A DNA stretch of 64,000 bases, taken from the IMG/VR virus record IMGVR_UViG_3300047564_002155, positions 1-64,000 of that record, one strand, 5' to 3'. A program made the translations under genes and the position numbers. The stretch comes from a virus. The notes beneath the pieces were generated by a model. The model did not search any database and was not told where the DNA came from. It saw only the letters and a program-made list of their open reading frames with translations. Of the stretch, positions 1,204-17,437 are shown piece after piece; positions within the stretch are counted from its first letter, which is position 1; each line of letters starts with the position of its first letter.

Positions 1204-1803
1204 ATGGCAATTTCAGACCAATTTAAGGGACTTCCAATTGAAGACCTTATCGTGCAACCATTAGTTGGAATGGCCAAAGGTCAAGCCCAACTAAATGATG
1301 TTACTTGGAGATACATCTCTGAAGTAGCATTTGAAAAAGATGAGAAAACTGGTAAGTCTTCAACAAGATTTCTTGATGTTCAGTTAAATCGTTATGTAAC
1401 TAATCCTGATTCAGGAGAACAAGAGTTACAACAAATCAACTCAATGGTTCCGATGTTACCATTAGTACCACTACCAGCATTAGCTATCACATCTGCTGAT
1501 GTTGAGTTCACTATGGAGATTCAACAATCTTCTACTGAAAAAGACACATCAAGTTCAGAAGCATCTTTTGCTGCATCTGCTCAAGGTGGTTTCTGGGGTA
1601 TGAAATACAAGGCGTCTATGTCTGGTAAAGTTGCAACCTCAAGAGAAAATACTCGTTCAACTGACAATTCTGCGAAATACAATGTAAAAGTACACGCTGA
1701 ACAATTACCTGCTACTGAAGGTATGTTGAAATTGTCTGATATGTTGAATATGATGATGGAACCAAGCATTGTTGCACAAGCGGACAATAACAACGCTAAC
1801 TAA
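1204..1803 (+). CDS. DUF2589-like protein (long form with Ser/Thr-rich beta-hairpin)
   Basis: FKGLPIEDLIVQPL...AQ, VPMLPLVPLPALAI..ADVEFTMEI, RSTDNSAKYNVKVHAEQLP..EG pattern recognised as DUF2589. Confidence 0.8.
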   Translation: MAISDQFKGLPIEDLIVQPLVGMAKGQAQLNDVTWRYISEVAFEKDEKTGKSSTRFLDVQLNRYVTNPDSGEQELQQINSMVPMLPLVPLPALAITSADVEFTMEIQQSSTEKDTSSSEASFAASAQGGFWGMKYKASMSGKVATSRENTRSTDNSAKYNVKVHAEQLPATEGMLKLSDMLNMMMEPSIVAQADNNNAN

Positions 1804-1806
1804 TAA

Positions 1807-1838
1807 TTTGGATATATAAAATATTTTTTGTATATTTG
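1807..1838 (+). promoter_or_regulatory. Bacteroidota sigma-A-type promoter (-33 TTTG / -7 TATATTTG)
   Basis: TTTG-N20-TATATTTG upstream of ORF 1860. Confidence 0.75.
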
Positions 1839-1859
1839 TTTATTAAAAAGTTACGCTAA

Positions 1860-2351
1860 ATGGCAAAAGTCAATTTAGAGGAACTATTGGGTGGTCTCCA
1901 AGAGGCCGCCCAAGTAGTTCTCTCAATACAAGAACGACAACACATCAATACGTTGTCAAAGTATTTTGATGAGGATGGAACTCCCATCACCCAAATTTTT
2001 AAAATTGGCGATTCGGAAGTGGCAGTTCCACTTTATATCCTAGCAGACCATTCTTCAGTAGGATTAGATGAATTAGACATTGAATTTCAAGCAAGATTAT
2101 TGCCGGGTGGAGAAACTCCATCAGAACTCAAAAAAAACTTATTACCTATTTTTGAAAGACAAAAACAAAAAGGTAATGCGCAATATAAACATCAGATTTC
2201 AAACATATCCGTTGATGGTGATACTCCCAACAAAGATGGTGTAGCAACTATTAAAATTAAATTTAAAAAAGATAACAAGCCCGAAGCGGTATCACGCTTG
2301 GTAGATATGTTGATTAATCAAATGAATGACCCAAATCACAAATTGAAATGA
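1860..2351 (+). CDS. DUF2589-like protein (short paralog)
   Basis: LEELLGGLQEAA..QHI..L..YFD, VPLYILA, LDELDIEF, IKIKFK...PEAVSRL; same layout as upstream gene. Confidence 0.7.
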   Translation: MAKVNLEELLGGLQEAAQVVLSIQERQHINTLSKYFDEDGTPITQIFKIGDSEVAVPLYILADHSSVGLDELDIEFQARLLPGGETPSELKKNLLPIFERQKQKGNAQYKHQISNISVDGDTPNKDGVATIKIKFKKDNKPEAVSRLVDMLINQMNDPNHKLK

Positions 2352-2623
2352 TACCTGAATTAGAATTACCAAATTCAAAAAAGAAAAAAGAAGAACCACA
2401 AAAAATGAAAAACATTTCACCAGACCAACATAGAAAAAGGTTAGGTATTTTCATAACCTCTATTTTTGCATTCACTTTAGGATTTATTTTCTTTGAGTTA
2501 CAACAAGAACAAAAGCTTGATGGTGAGTGGAAAGAACTAATTCTTGTTTTAATTGGCGCCCTTATTGGTAATTTTGGAAAAGTGGTTGATTTTTGGTTTC
2601 ATCACAAACAAGACCAAGAATAA
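2348..2623 (+). CDS. small two-TM membrane protein (holin-like)
   Basis: two hydrophobic segments (LGIFITSIFAFTLGFIFF; LILVLIGALIGNFGKVVDFWF). Confidence 0.6.
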   Translation: MIPELELPNSKKKKEEPQKMKNISPDQHRKRLGIFITSIFAFTLGFIFFELQQEQKLDGEWKELILVLIGALIGNFGKVVDFWFHHKQDQE

Positions 2624-2835
2624 TGCCGCTACCTTGTCCAGGATGTAGACAACCCCTTGGAATGGACCTTGACTTTATTGTAAAAAATCCTATATCAGTA
2701 TGTCCACATTGTGGGGTGATTATGAATTTTACTGCTGATAATAACGTAGTAGCTGATTATAGAAGAGCATTGTCTGATATTGAATCTATCAAAACAAAGT
2801 ACAAAGACATAGCTAAATTTGGTGCAAAAACTTAA
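2623..2835 (+). CDS. zinc-ribbon protein
   Basis: CPGC...CPHC; ATG overlaps upstream TAA. Confidence 0.7.
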   Translation: MPLPCPGCRQPLGMDLDFIVKNPISVCPHCGVIMNFTADNNVVADYRRALSDIESIKTKYKDIAKFGAKT

Positions 2836-9762: not shown

Positions 9763-9997
9763 TTCTTGTGTAATTCAAACTTATTTTGTATATTTGTAAA
9801 ATGATTAACGTAATATCACTATATCTGATTGTTGGATTCATCCATATGTTTTTGATTGGATTTGTCACAACAAGAATAAAAAAACTTGGCGGTGATATTG
9901 AATACACCCATTTGGAACGAATTATGGTTATTTTAGTATGGCCTGTATTTGGATTCTTTTTTTGGTATAACTTTTTTAGAACCTTACTTGGAAATAA

Positions 9998-14050: not shown

Positions 14051-16096
14051 ATGACTAAATCAAAATCTTCTTACTCTTCGTTCTGGCTTGACAAGTCCCT
14101 ATTCCTTGATGAGGACACTACCTATGTCACCGATATAGAACGAAAGTCCTCTGACCTTATGAAATTGGTATCCTACAAACGTGCGGTATCCAACTTCGTT
14201 AATATTGTAACGGGTATGCCAATTAAGGTCACCTTTGATGAACGGGGTTCCGACTCTTACACCGATGGTACGGAAGTAGTTATCTCCGCTAAGATGGATG
14301 ATGCTGAATTTGACCCCACGGTGGGTCTGGCGCTTCACGAGGGTTCTCACATCAAACTTACTGACTTTGAGACTCTTCGTAAAATGGCTCGTGATAATTA
14401 CTTTCCATCTACTATTGATGTGAACTATCTTCGTGAAAAGATGGGTCTTGAACTTGAGTCAAGTGTTTCATCCGCTATTTACGACCAACTGAAAGACCTG
14501 CTTAATGTGGTTGAGGACCGTAGGATTGATAACTACATCTTCCAAACCGCTCCGGGCTATCGTGGTTACTACGAGTCAATGTACGATAAATACTTCAACG
14601 CCAAGATTATTGATAAAGGTCTTCAGTCTTCCGAGTATCGTGATGAGAATTGGGATTCTTACATTTTCCGAATTGCAAACATCACCAACGCAAATCGTGA
14701 CCTTGACGCTTTGAAGGGTCTTCGTGAGATTTGGAACATCCTTGACCTTAAAAATATTGGTCGGTTGAAAACTACTTGGGATGCTCTTGAGGTTGCAGGT
14801 GCTGTGTTTATGGTTTACTTTAAAAATTACATTGAGGCTAAAGAACAAGGTCAAGGTGGTGGTGATAATCAGACCGAACCAAAAGAACACGAAATGAACG
14901 GACAAGCCGATATGAGTGGTGATATGGATGACCAATCATCGGAAGGCGGTATGTCTTCTAATATGGATATGAGTGGTGAACCTACCGATAGTGGTGATGA
15001 GACTGAAGTAGAACAACTCAGCCCATCTCAAGTTGAACAACTTAAACGGGCTATTGAAAAGCAGAAGAAGTTTCAAGAAGGTGAGGTCACTAAAAAGAAA
15101 ATTGGTAAGAGTGAAAAGCGTAAGGTAGAAGCTCTTGACCGAGCTGATATTGATGTTGAGGTCACGGGTAAGGATATGACTCGTAAGTGGAATAGTTCCG
15201 CTTCGGGTGGAACCCAAACCTATGTGGTTCGTAACTTTAGTAAAGAGTTGATTTCTACCAATCAGTTTCCAATTCTTACGGATTCTGTCTGGCGGACTGA
15301 ACAAAATGTGAAAAACACCCAACGGGGTATTCAGTTGGGTATTCTCTTGGGTAAAAAACTCAAGACTCGTAATGAAGAACGCTCTTTGATTACCCCTCGT
15401 ATGAAGAGTGGTAAATTAAGTGCTCGTATGATTCACGAGATTGGGTTTGGTAACTTTGATATCTTTGAACGAACGATGGTCAACAAATCCAAGCCCGCTG
15501 TGATTCACATCACTATTGACGCTAGTGGTTCAATGGGTGGTGATAAGTGGAACAACACCCAAGTCGCAGCGGTTGCTATCGCTAAGGCGGCTTCAATGAC
15601 CCAAAACATTGATGTGGTAATTTCTTACCGAAGTACAATGGGTTATGGTAGTGATTATGTACCATTCATCTTGGTGGCTTATGATAGTCGTAAGGACAAG
15701 TTCTCTAAAATTCAGAACTTATTCCACCACATTACTCCAAACGGAACGACTCCTGAAGGTTTGTGTTTTGAGGCTGTGATGAAGGATATTATCGGATACG
15801 CTAAAGGTAGTGACGCTTACTTTATCAACTTTTCCGATGGATGTCCGACATTCTCAAACAACGACATCTACTACGAAGGTCAAGATGCTTACAATCACAC
15901 TGCCGCTCAAGTTAAGAAAATCCGCCAAGCCGGAATCAATGTCCTTTCTTACTTCATCACCGAAGGTTACTACGGAACCGACGCACAGGCCTTCAAAACG
16001 ATGTATGGTAAAGACGCTCAGTTCATCAATGTGACCGAGGTGGCTCCTCTTGCTAAAACACTTAACTCAAAGTTTGAGGCAAATTTAACAATTTGA
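14051..16096 (+). CDS. zincin (HExxH) + vWA domain protein (CobT-like)
   Basis: ALHEGSH...NVVEDRRID; acidic linker; MIDAS DASGS, GTTP, FSDG. Confidence 0.85.
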   Translation: MTKSKSSYSSFWLDKSLFLDEDTTYVTDIERKSSDLMKLVSYKRAVSNFVNIVTGMPIKVTFDERGSDSYTDGTEVVISAKMDDAEFDPTVGLALHEGSHIKLTDFETLRKMARDNYFPSTIDVNYLREKMGLELESSVSSAIYDQLKDLLNVVEDRRIDNYIFQTAPGYRGYYESMYDKYFNAKIIDKGLQSSEYRDENWDSYIFRIANITNANRDLDALKGLREIWNILDLKNIGRLKTTWDALEVAGAVFMVYFKNYIEAKEQGQGGGDNQTEPKEHEMNGQADMSGDMDDQSSEGGMSSNMDMSGEPTDSGDETEVEQLSPSQVEQLKRAIEKQKKFQEGEVTKKKIGKSEKRKVEALDRADIDVEVTGKDMTRKWNSSASGGTQTYVVRNFSKELISTNQFPILTDSVWRTEQNVKNTQRGIQLGILLGKKLKTRNEERSLITPRMKSGKLSARMIHEIGFGNFDIFERTMVNKSKPAVIHITIDASGSMGGDKWNNTQVAAVAIAKAASMTQNIDVVISYRSTMGYGSDYVPFILVAYDSRKDKFSKIQNLFHHITPNGTTPEGLCFEAVMKDIIGYAKGSDAYFINFSDGCPTFSNNDIYYEGQDAYNHTAAQVKKIRQAGINVLSYFITEGYYGTDAQAFKTMYGKDAQFINVTEVAPLAKTLNSKFEANLTI

Positions 16097-16139
16097 TAAC
16101 ATTAGACGCTTGTATATTCCGAATAATTTCGTATCTTTG
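16085..16139 (+). promoter_or_regulatory. TTAACA-N5-ATAACA box + sigma-A promoter
   Basis: repeat at 16085/16096; TTG 16110; TATCTTTG 16132. Confidence 0.75.
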
Positions 16140-16165
16140 TTAAGTAATCAGTTAATCACTCTTTT

Positions 16166-17437
16166 ATGAAAAACCAACGCTTTGTTTATGGTTCAGTTGT
16201 TGAGAAAAACGGAATCCTCCTTTTCTCTGATGTGGAAGGTAAATTGTATAATTTGCCAGAGTTAAATGAAAAGGGAAGTCCCCTTTACAAACGAGCCCGA
16301 GCGGCTGCTAACGCTCCTGGCAAGTGGGCTTTTAAAGTTCGTGTTGTTGGGACATTAAAGAGTGGTTCTTTGGGATTCACTCGTGTTGGGGTTGAGATGC
16401 TCGCTGGAGCTGAACCCGTGACCAACTTTGATAAACCAAATGGTGGTCTTGAATCTTATCTTTACAATTCTAATCCTACTACCGAACCTATGGTAACTAA
16501 TGTTCCTGAAGATGTCCTTAACTTTATTCACAATGAAGCCGAGGGTCTCAAACCCAAGATGTTGTTTATGAACTCACTCAAGTGGAAATACTTGGTTCGT
16601 AACATCATCCGTGGTAAGAACATTATGATGACCGGCCCTGCTGGTTGTGGTAAGACTATGGCTGCTAAGGCGGCTGCTAACTCCCTTGAGGGTTACAACA
16701 CCTTCATCATCAACTTGGGTGCTACACAAGACCCACGAACGACCTTGATTGGTAATACTCAATTTGATACCACGAAAGGTACGGTGTTTAACTCATCACC
16801 ATTTGTTAAGGCGATTCAGACTCCCAACATGGTGATTGTGTTGGATGAGATTACTCGTGCTCACCCAGAGGCTTGGAACATTCTGATGACGGTACTTGAC
16901 CAAGGTCAACGCTACCTACGATTGGATGAGGCTGCTGACGCTCCTGTGGTTCGTGTCGCTGATGGTGTATCGTTTATCGCTTCCGCTAACATCGGTAACG
17001 AGTACACCGCTACACGAATGCTTGACCGGGCTATCCTTGACCGATTCACTATCATTGAGATGGATACCTTGACCAAAGAAGAAGAGACCCAACTGCTTCA
17101 GATGATGTATCCTTCAGTTGAGGCTGAGTTGATTGCAAGTGTGGCTGAGATTACTTCAATGACTCGTAACGAGGTCAAAGGTGATTCTCCCAAACTTACC
17201 AACTCACTATCTACACGGGCTGCTGTGGAGATTGGTTCACTTCTCTACGATGGGTTCTCTCTTGAAGAGGCTGCTGAAATTACCATCTACCCATTCTTTG
17301 AAGAAGCCGGTGGTGCTCAATCTGAACGAGTCTACATCAAGCAGTTCGTTCAAAAGTTTATCAAGACTACATCTACCGAAGATATCTTCAATGTGGATGT
17401 TGATGTGGAAACTTACGATTACTCTAATCCTTTCTAA
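16166..17437 (+). CDS. MoxR-family AAA+ ATPase (CbbQ/NorQ/CobS-like)
   Basis: GPAGCGKT, VLDEITR, ASAN, LDRAILDRF, STR. Confidence 0.9.
   Translation: MKNQRFVYGSVVEKNGILLFSDVEGKLYNLPELNEKGSPLYKRARAAANAPGKWAFKVRVVGTLKSGSLGFTRVGVEMLAGAEPVTNFDKPNGGLESYLYNSNPTTEPMVTNVPEDVLNFIHNEAEGLKPKMLFMNSLKWKYLVRNIIRGKNIMMTGPAGCGKTMAAKAAANSLEGYNTFIINLGATQDPRTTLIGNTQFDTTKGTVFNSSPFVKAIQTPNMVIVLDEITRAHPEAWNILMTVLDQGQRYLRLDEAADAPVVRVADGVSFIASANIGNEYTATRMLDRAILDRFTIIEMDTLTKEEETQLLQMMYPSVEAELIASVAEITSMTRNEVKGDSPKLTNSLSTRAAVEIGSLLYDGFSLEEAAEITIYPFFEEAGGAQSERVYIKQFVQKFIKTTSTEDIFNVDVDVETYDYSNPF

Follow-up and report, generated by a model that had tools for sequence, protein, structure and literature searches.

What would a freshwater, T4-like phage do with a compact cassette built around two paralogs of DUF2589, a protein family that has a name and no assigned function? 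The cassette in question lies at positions 1204–2835 of the first 64,000 nucleotides of IMG/VR virus record IMGVR_UViG_3300047564_002155, and this 64-kb stretch is referred to below as the window; the full record measures 168 kb and is rated ~94% complete. An earlier note, made from the window's sequence, had described four phage-encoded open reading frames (ORFs): a DUF2589-like pair, a small protein with two transmembrane (TM) segments, and a CxxC..CxxC protein. All four ORFs are confirmed on the + strand at the positions given below, with hydrophobic segments at residues 32–50 and 64–82 of the third product and a CPGC...CPHC motif in the fourth, and the phage origin is secured by large ORFs of the record that match T4-type baseplate wedge, SbcC-like nuclease, large terminase and portal families.

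Our answer, to which we assign a probability of roughly 40%, is that the cassette encodes a late-made, soluble, heteromeric β-hairpin assembly that perforates or otherwise breaches the cell envelope. We favor this reading because one paralog carries an amphipathic hairpin whose alternation and G-W/F-G tip are kept among its relatives, because peptidoglycan-active partners recur in relatives of the pair, because the pair and the zinc ribbon stay linked despite shuffling, because the hairpin-bearing gene has a late-type box and a Shine-Dalgarno (SD) sequence common to structural genes, because a small 2-TM protein recurs beside the triad, and because small soluble proteins that form β-barrel pores from inside the cell exist (Pepco, discussed below). 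The elements on which this argument turns, all on the + strand, are:

1204–1803, +: A, the hairpin-bearing DUF2589 paralog, 199 aa, probable major subunit (PF11655, E 2.3e-29)
1555–1632, +: amphipathic β-hairpin of A, residues 118–143, with arms 118–128 and 135–143 and tip G-G-F-W-G
1860–2351, +: B, the hairpin-less DUF2589 paralog, 163 aa (PF11655, E 3.4e-9)
2348–2623, +: 2-TM protein, 91 aa, facultative partner, with the motif EWKELxLxLxGAxIGxxGKxxDxWF
2623–2835, +: zinc-ribbon protein, 70 aa, CPGC...CPHC plus a C-terminal helix, third partner in its own clade

Both paralogs belong to Pfam family DUF2589. Against a gathering cutoff of 23 bits, A scores 103.2 bits over profile positions 1–152 of 154 and B scores 37.7 bits over positions 2–153, so that each passes across the full profile, and a scan of the whole 168-kb record returned A and B as the sole matches. 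The two proteins do not match each other significantly by BLASTP; comparison of the A family with the B family by hhalign gives 97.3% probability (E 2e-11, 155 columns), indicating full-length paralogy. The earlier assignment of two DUF2589-like paralogs, for which a hidden Markov model (HMM) search had been proposed, is thus sustained. The A family is large, with 985 close homologs and 1,057 clusters at the 50% level. Beyond family membership, annotation offers little: none of the four proteins has a defense-system match in PADLOC-DB v2 at E ≤ 1, an informative match in NCBIfam or anything informative among PHROGs; the 2-TM protein weakly matches phrog_1544, the function of which is unknown; and the zinc-ribbon protein has no Pfam or PDB relative above threshold. 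In the literature searched, DUF2589 comes up in two papers, in passing only; none explains the family, and PF11655 was not found.

One feature that separates the paralogs is the hairpin of A. The earlier note had pointed to a Ser/Thr-rich alternating segment with an aromatic tip in A and no counterpart in B; this segment, EASFAASAQGGFWGMKYKASMSGKV (residues 119–143), turns out to be a family-wide property when A is aligned with 64 relatives of 28–79% identity to it. Across these relatives the two arms alternate strictly, with a lag-2 autocorrelation of 0.73 in arm 1, an outward face of A/V/L/I/G/F and an inward face of S/T/K, and the tip at residues 129–133 is kept as G-W/F-G. A Ser/Thr-rich polar collar (residues 107–117 and 144–156) joins the hairpin to the core strands of A, and B has a short helical loop where A has the hairpin. 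An arm of ~11 residues suits a bilayer-spanning β-strand such as those of β-barrel pores. Taken together, these features amount to the sequence signature of a membrane-spanning β-hairpin; being a pattern, it stops short of demonstrating such a structure.

An AlphaFold2 model of A, built from the 64-sequence alignment, has a mean predicted local distance difference test (pLDDT) score of 72 and shows an elongated protein with a long N-terminal helix (residues 12–42), a β core, two very long strands (93–111 and 150–167), and a C-terminal helix. The model of B alone (pLDDT 52) arranges its elements likewise, except that a short helix replaces the hairpin. A fold search of BFVD with the A model recovered one true homolog, itself unnamed. 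Prediction of an A+B complex with alignments (score 0.14, mark 0.32) speaks neither for nor against binding and was not used. A, B and the zinc-ribbon protein lack TM helices and signal peptides, and any action on the envelope must therefore begin in the cytoplasm, as it does in endolysin systems.

We next turn to which of the four genes travel together. The viral sample consists of 80 loci, on contigs of up to 274 kb, kept from at least 219 IMG/VR contigs that carry a close relative of A; among 50,697 deposited phage records, tblastn of A found no homolog and megablast of the first 8 kb found no match. A and B form an obligate pair: they are neighbors wherever a locus offers enough sequence, and five bacterial genomes each hold one A and one B, no more. 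Linkage of the zinc ribbon to the pair is seen in 77 of the 80 viral loci, in shuffled order: A-B-zinc ribbon in 30, zinc ribbon-A-B in 35 (13 of them with the TM gene upstream), A-zinc ribbon-B in seven and A-B-TM-zinc ribbon in four. That the linkage outlasts such shuffling speaks for a triad with a common function. In 17 of the 80 loci a member of the 2-TM family is encoded no more than 5 kb away, with variable position and C-terminal extensions, and in another lineage ~6 kb away, so that the 2-TM protein is a facultative fourth partner. We had considered its gene an insertion unique to the lineage of this phage, and rejected this when HMM searches placed the family near the triad elsewhere. 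The four-gene linkage therefore holds in part: the A/B core is found everywhere and the zinc ribbon nearly so among viral loci, the 2-TM gene is facultative, and the four do not make up a fixed unit. Long relatives of the 2-TM protein (200–233 aa; L031:3608–4300, L049, L052, L062, L078 and others) carry acidic, Ca-binding-like DxDGDG repeats and also end in a C-terminal CxH...CxxC motif, which hints at a metal-binding tail of their own.

Outside the phages, copies ~70% identical to the phage ones, in the order A-B-zinc ribbon, occur on contigs with Bacteroidota hallmarks (a SusC-type TonB receptor and Por_Secre_tail), an unusually high conservation. Chromosomal copies of this type (L008–L010) are flanked by 2H-SAK, HAD_SAK_2, PolyA_pol and CoaE, genes of the RNA-repair "Swiss army knife" type. 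A profile scan of bacterial genome contigs with a narrow alignment gave six loci. In Planctomycetota, Desulfobacterota, Gammaproteobacteria and Spirochaetota the shared part is limited to the pair, which has the order B then A and housekeeping neighbors. The universal core is thus the A/B pair, found across several bacterial phyla, and the zinc ribbon is a third partner limited to the clade of Bacteroidota and T4-like phages. A second small-partner family of ~87 aa (NRCLxEGRG...YHIGFKRKPxW), with no Pfam match and unrelated to the zinc ribbon, is seen in Desulfobacterota and on an unrelated metagenomic contig (L015:7759–8106, L017:7583–7846 and L111:1760–2026). A search for longer, fused forms of A yielded one protein, of 362 aa, without an additional Pfam domain. 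We regard the locus as a self-contained cassette that moves horizontally.

A link to the cell wall comes from peptidoglycan-active proteins. Among nine independent lineages with Pfam-annotated context, four show such a link. An N-terminal Amidase_2 domain is fused to an A-type domain in one protein (P0256); in jumbo-phage-like contigs, B contains an inserted PG_binding_1 domain, placed precisely at the loop that stands in for the hairpin; a chromosomal three-paralog locus encodes a signal-less GH19 protein (29.5 bits, cutoff 25.5) two genes downstream from its third DUF2589 paralog; and a signal-less Phage_lysozyme lies directly upstream of A in one lineage. The association is recurrent, not universal. 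The jumbo-phage-like contigs (L011–L013, up to 612 kb) also encode tRNA synthetases, DHFR and a ClpB-like ATPase.

The expression signals of the cassette set A apart from its partners. The relevant elements, again on the + strand, are:

1172–1178, +: ATATTTA box, candidate late promoter element, 32 nt upstream of A
1194–1199, +: Shine-Dalgarno-like AAGGAA box before A
1831–1838, +: TATATTTG box of the Bacteroidota -7 type (TAnnTTTG), 29 nt upstream of B
2851–2881, +: intrinsic-terminator-like hairpin and T-run closing the cassette, with a 9-bp stem including 5 GC pairs and a 3-nt loop, followed by TTTTTTATTA

The + strand of the window has 12 copies of ATATTTA, seven of them no more than 60 nt before a start codon, where ~0.9 would be expected; the motif precedes A, the portal gene and other genes of the structural region. 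Copies of (G)ATATTTA at 1172, 28723, 38665, 49182, 60431 and 62349 stand 12–47 nt upstream of starts and are usually followed by an AAGGA-type SD. We regard (G)ATATTTA as a candidate late promoter element, analogous to the TATAAATA of T4. AAGGA boxes cluster on structural genes between 29 and 63 kb, and A is the sole gene with an intergenic AAGGA box in the early-type first 23 kb and the only gene of the cassette to carry late-gene signals in this phage. The box before B, in its extended form T(T/C)GTAT(A/C)TTTGT, also precedes the genes at 9801, 14051, 16166 and 24885; the copies start at 1831, 9789, 14025, 16132 and 24855, 12–34 nt upstream of early-type genes, and look like a host-type promoter class of the phage. 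Within 14051–17437, a 681-aa ORF weakly matches a PHROG annotated as "cobalamin biosynthesis protein" and a 423-aa ORF matches AAA-ATPase and "porphyrin biosynthesis" PHROGs.

The same asymmetry is found in relatives: of 40 distinct viral regions upstream of A, 14 contain a late-type box, compared with three of 38 for B and a background of 3%. In some lineages a terminator-like hairpin separates A from B, which suggests that A is produced in excess; in this phage none was found in the 56-nt A–B spacer. We infer that A is made late and in probable excess, while B, the 2-TM protein and the zinc ribbon may also be made earlier. The last three genes are translationally coupled, as the earlier note had it, with the B stop overlapping the 2-TM start in ATGA (2348–2351) and the 2-TM stop overlapping the zinc-ribbon start in TAATG (2621–2625); alignment with relatives places the latter start at ATG 2623 (MPLPCPGC...CPHC) and not at the upstream TTG 2593. 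The + strand carries all genes here: a dCMP deaminase gene (697–1152) precedes the cassette, and a sigma-70-like TTGACA-17-TATCTT at 2857–2885 overlaps the cassette terminator and precedes the next gene (2902).

Combining these observations, we propose the following sequence of events. The core would be a heteromeric pair of soluble DUF2589 proteins with A as the major subunit, whose hairpin offers distal arms of 11+11 residues, in which small hydrophobic residues alternate with Ser/Lys, and a Gly-aromatic tip. A would oligomerize and insert its hairpins into a membrane as a β-barrel-like stem; B, lacking the hairpin, would act as a minor or regulatory subunit, and the 70-aa zinc ribbon would serve in assembly or control within its own clade. 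Late in infection, such insertion would help to breach the envelope, for instance by letting signal-less wall hydrolases reach peptidoglycan or by destabilizing a membrane, and the 2-TM protein may serve as an optional membrane-side helper of holin-, antiholin- or anchor-like character. Oligomerization, membrane insertion, the target membrane and the parts assigned to B, to the zinc ribbon and to the 2-TM protein are what we infer; family membership, paralogy, the hairpin pattern, the linkage patterns, the peptidoglycan links of relatives and the late-type signals on A are what we observed. The earlier note had envisaged a membrane-active or polymeric hetero-oligomer acting in lysis, exclusion or defense against predators. 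A membrane-active hetero-oligomer is still the best reading, while an anti-predator polymer fits less well, as the peptidoglycan-enzyme links and the late signals on A point to the envelope and lysis instead.

Several observations weigh against this proposal. Residues 113–150 of A, hairpin included, are modeled at pLDDT <50, and A has no solved counterpart: Foldseek against the PDB gave a best E of 0.3, VIA-align against 48,161 chains found no resemblance (best Z 4.0), and sequence and profile searches against PDB chains returned nothing below E 0.09. The comparison with aerolysin-like folds that the earlier note had suggested thus gave no match, and the barrel is proposed from sequence pattern only. 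The late-promoter assignment of A, for its part, is based on motif enrichment. In the viral loci the commonest neighbors of the triad are gp23, DNA ligase and homing endonucleases, with no wall hydrolase among them. In the 168-kb record there is no match to Amidase_2, Phage_lysozyme or Peptidase_M15_4, and its only PG_binding_1 protein lies far from the cassette at ~153.9–154.7 kb (153902–154747; L020:1441–2286). This 281-aa protein, the probable endolysin, carries PG_binding_1 at its N terminus, followed by an Ala/Pro-rich linker and, at the C terminus, a domain without a Pfam match; T4 also scatters its lysis genes, so that a non-adjacent endolysin is weak evidence. Finally, the single pair per genome, among housekeeping neighbors and with no visible lysin, in the five bacterial genomes would fit a structural or housekeeping role too, and the ~70% identity between phage and Bacteroidota copies fits such a role as well as a lytic one.

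One alternative, which we consider unlikely, is that A and B form a non-pore polymer or lattice (a filament, sheet, shell or scaffold) in the cell or on the envelope, with A as the major component, B capping or nucleating it as a minor one, and the zinc ribbon as an assembly factor. The hydrophobic face of the hairpin is weak, made of small residues (mostly Ala/Gly), and would also suit sheet-on-sheet packing; in a polymer the Ser/Ala hairpin would pack in this manner and not enter lipid. Very high conservation over phages and bacteria, expression signals of A that are separate from and apparently stronger than those of B, an elongated model with long strands and no globular PDB counterpart, and single pairs in housekeeping contexts are all in keeping with such a lattice. 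It leaves unexplained, however, the fusion and adjacency to signal-less wall hydrolases and peptidoglycan-binding domains, the Gly-aromatic tip that is typical of membrane-inserting hairpins, and the recurrent 2-TM partner. The single-copy chromosomal pairs amid housekeeping genes could also be taken to indicate a membrane-protecting or membrane-remodeling coat of the PspA/Vipp1 stress type, borrowed by phages to preserve the host envelope until progeny are complete. A PspC-domain gene does stand just upstream of the cassette in one phage lineage, and omics studies report DUF2589 genes that respond to growth conditions or antibiotic (PMC3949148, PMC11402942). But the PspC neighbor is not conserved, no similarity to PspA/ESCRT-III folds was seen, and the lysin links favor breaching over protection, which makes a protective coat very unlikely.

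The hairpin pattern itself is shared with another explanation, that of a conflict module in which a latent pore-forming death or exclusion effector, akin to Pepco or bacterial gasdermin, is restrained by B and/or the zinc ribbon and serves abortive infection in bacteria and superinfection exclusion or the killing of competitors in phages. That the module is small, mobile, shuffled and common to phages and cells would suit this explanation, as would the Pepco precedent of small cytoplasmic proteins that form toxic β-barrels and the weak matches to Trypco2 in four of 64 A-type members. We nevertheless hold it to be quite unlikely: PADLOC returned no match, the neighborhoods examined contain no protease, sensor NTPase or defense-island genes, hhalign gives Trypco2 less than 1% probability, and late-type expression of A suits lysis better than exclusion, which is usually early. 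Late-type expression, with its box and SD on A, would also befit virion components such as head or tail accessory proteins, and the triad lies directly downstream of gp23, the major capsid gene, in 14 viral loci. The position of the triad is highly variable among phages, however, no PHROG structural family matches, and one pair per genome is found in non-prophage chromosomal contexts in several bacterial phyla, all of which renders a virion role highly improbable.

Returning to the envelope-breaching assembly, a broader version would hold that A/B pairs in bacteria, archaea and tailed phages are unrecognized, ancient, soluble membrane perforators that act as β-barrels from the inside out, and that in large T4-like phages of Bacteroidota they provide a non-holin route to lysis, in which late A assembles on pre-made B and zinc ribbon (with or without the 2-TM protein) and opens the membrane to signal-less wall hydrolases. 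This generalization is doubtful at present. If the pair is indeed a membrane-perforating or envelope-breaching machine of soluble β-hairpin proteins, it would add a new phage lysis mechanism beside helical holins, pinholins and spanins, and possibly a route of bacterial protein release, and would account for how many signal-less bacterial wall hydrolases reach their substrate. It would also supply a concrete candidate for phages of Bacteroidota, whose lysis systems are poorly known and among which no cultured phage carries this cassette. DUF2589 is abundant, as the cluster and viral contig counts above attest, yet has neither an assigned function nor a structure, and an assembly so conserved in phages and cells, with a fold that matches none solved, merits structure determination even should the pore idea fail.

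How, then, does the cassette compare with known systems? β-Barrel pore-forming toxins such as α-hemolysin and aerolysin, and the stems of anthrax protective antigen, carry a hairpin in which hydrophobic and Ser/Thr residues alternate up to a Gly-aromatic tip, which is poorly ordered in the monomer, and in which a polar collar separates core and stem. A resembles them in each of these respects, and by its sequence pattern its amphipathic hairpin could span a bilayer. No similarity of fold or sequence to these toxins was detected, however. The toxins have an export signal, whereas A and B have neither a signal peptide nor a hydrophobic N-terminal segment, and the DUF2589 proteins are much smaller, heteromeric with a hairpin-less paralog, and weaker in their hydrophobic face.

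Another analogy is Pepco (Trypco1/Trypco2), a small cytoplasmic protein that has been shown experimentally to form a 9–10-mer β-barrel that kills from inside (Evans et al. 2025, bioRxiv 10.1101/2025.11.14.688446). Like A, Pepco is a small cytoplasmic protein with an N-terminal helix and a Gly-rich hairpin. DUF2589, in contrast, is twice the size, comes as a paralog pair with a small partner, and has no associated protease or sensor; none of the neighborhoods examined has a protease next to DUF2589 genes. The Trypco2 profile (PF19631) has no match among the window proteins at E ≤ 1, its matches among the A relatives reach a best E of 0.041, and the hhalign comparison, against three genuine Trypco2 sequences, used a thin profile that still allows for remote homology. 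Trypco2 is absent from 201 genomes of one phylum and has two genuine copies in 301 of another. We therefore rejected homology to Pepco/Trypco2, given the hhalign result, and retain it as an analogy.

Phage holin-endolysin(-spanin) cassettes and type 10 secretion offer a further parallel, in that DUF2589 relatives adjoin or are fused to signal-less muramidase, amidase, GH19 and peptidoglycan-binding domains, and in that A has late-type signals and an accompanying small 2-TM protein. Holins, however, are helical membrane proteins, while A and B are soluble, β-rich and without a TM helix; holins also sit by their endolysin, while no lysin is adjacent in this phage or its 80 relatives, and the pair is present in bacteria without a visible lysin as well. 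R-bodies (RebA/RebB) share with the DUF2589 pair the use of small multi-paralog sets proposed to build large assemblies, but Reb proteins are helical and DUF2589 proteins β-rich. The link to reb loci mentioned in the earlier note did not hold up: RebB (PF11747) is absent from the phage record, no reb genes lie in any neighborhood examined, and among the five pair-carrying bacterial genomes RebB is present in one, on a different contig (C29) from the pair (C17). In that genome, of Desulfoluna spongiiphila (G002), C29 carries eight RebB paralogs at 338.4–341.7 kb, one with an in-frame TAG, unrelated to the pair on C17.

The cassette thus falls outside every known kind of system, failing the tests for β-pore toxins, holins, Pepco, R-bodies and catalogued defense, and its function is unproven. 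The nearest named entity is the Pfam family DUF2589 itself, with gene pairs in bacteria, archaea and viruses and no assigned function or structure. There, as here, the pairing of a hairpin-bearing with a hairpin-less protein is the rule in all loci examined, and to this pairing the present clade adds the zinc ribbon as a third partner and, in some phages, the 2-TM protein as a fourth. What is new, beyond the family, is the wide presence of the cassette in uncultured T4-like phages of probable Bacteroidota hosts, together with the order-shuffled linkage to a zinc ribbon, a 2-TM partner that recurs, and late-type signals that are confined to the hairpin-bearing subunit.

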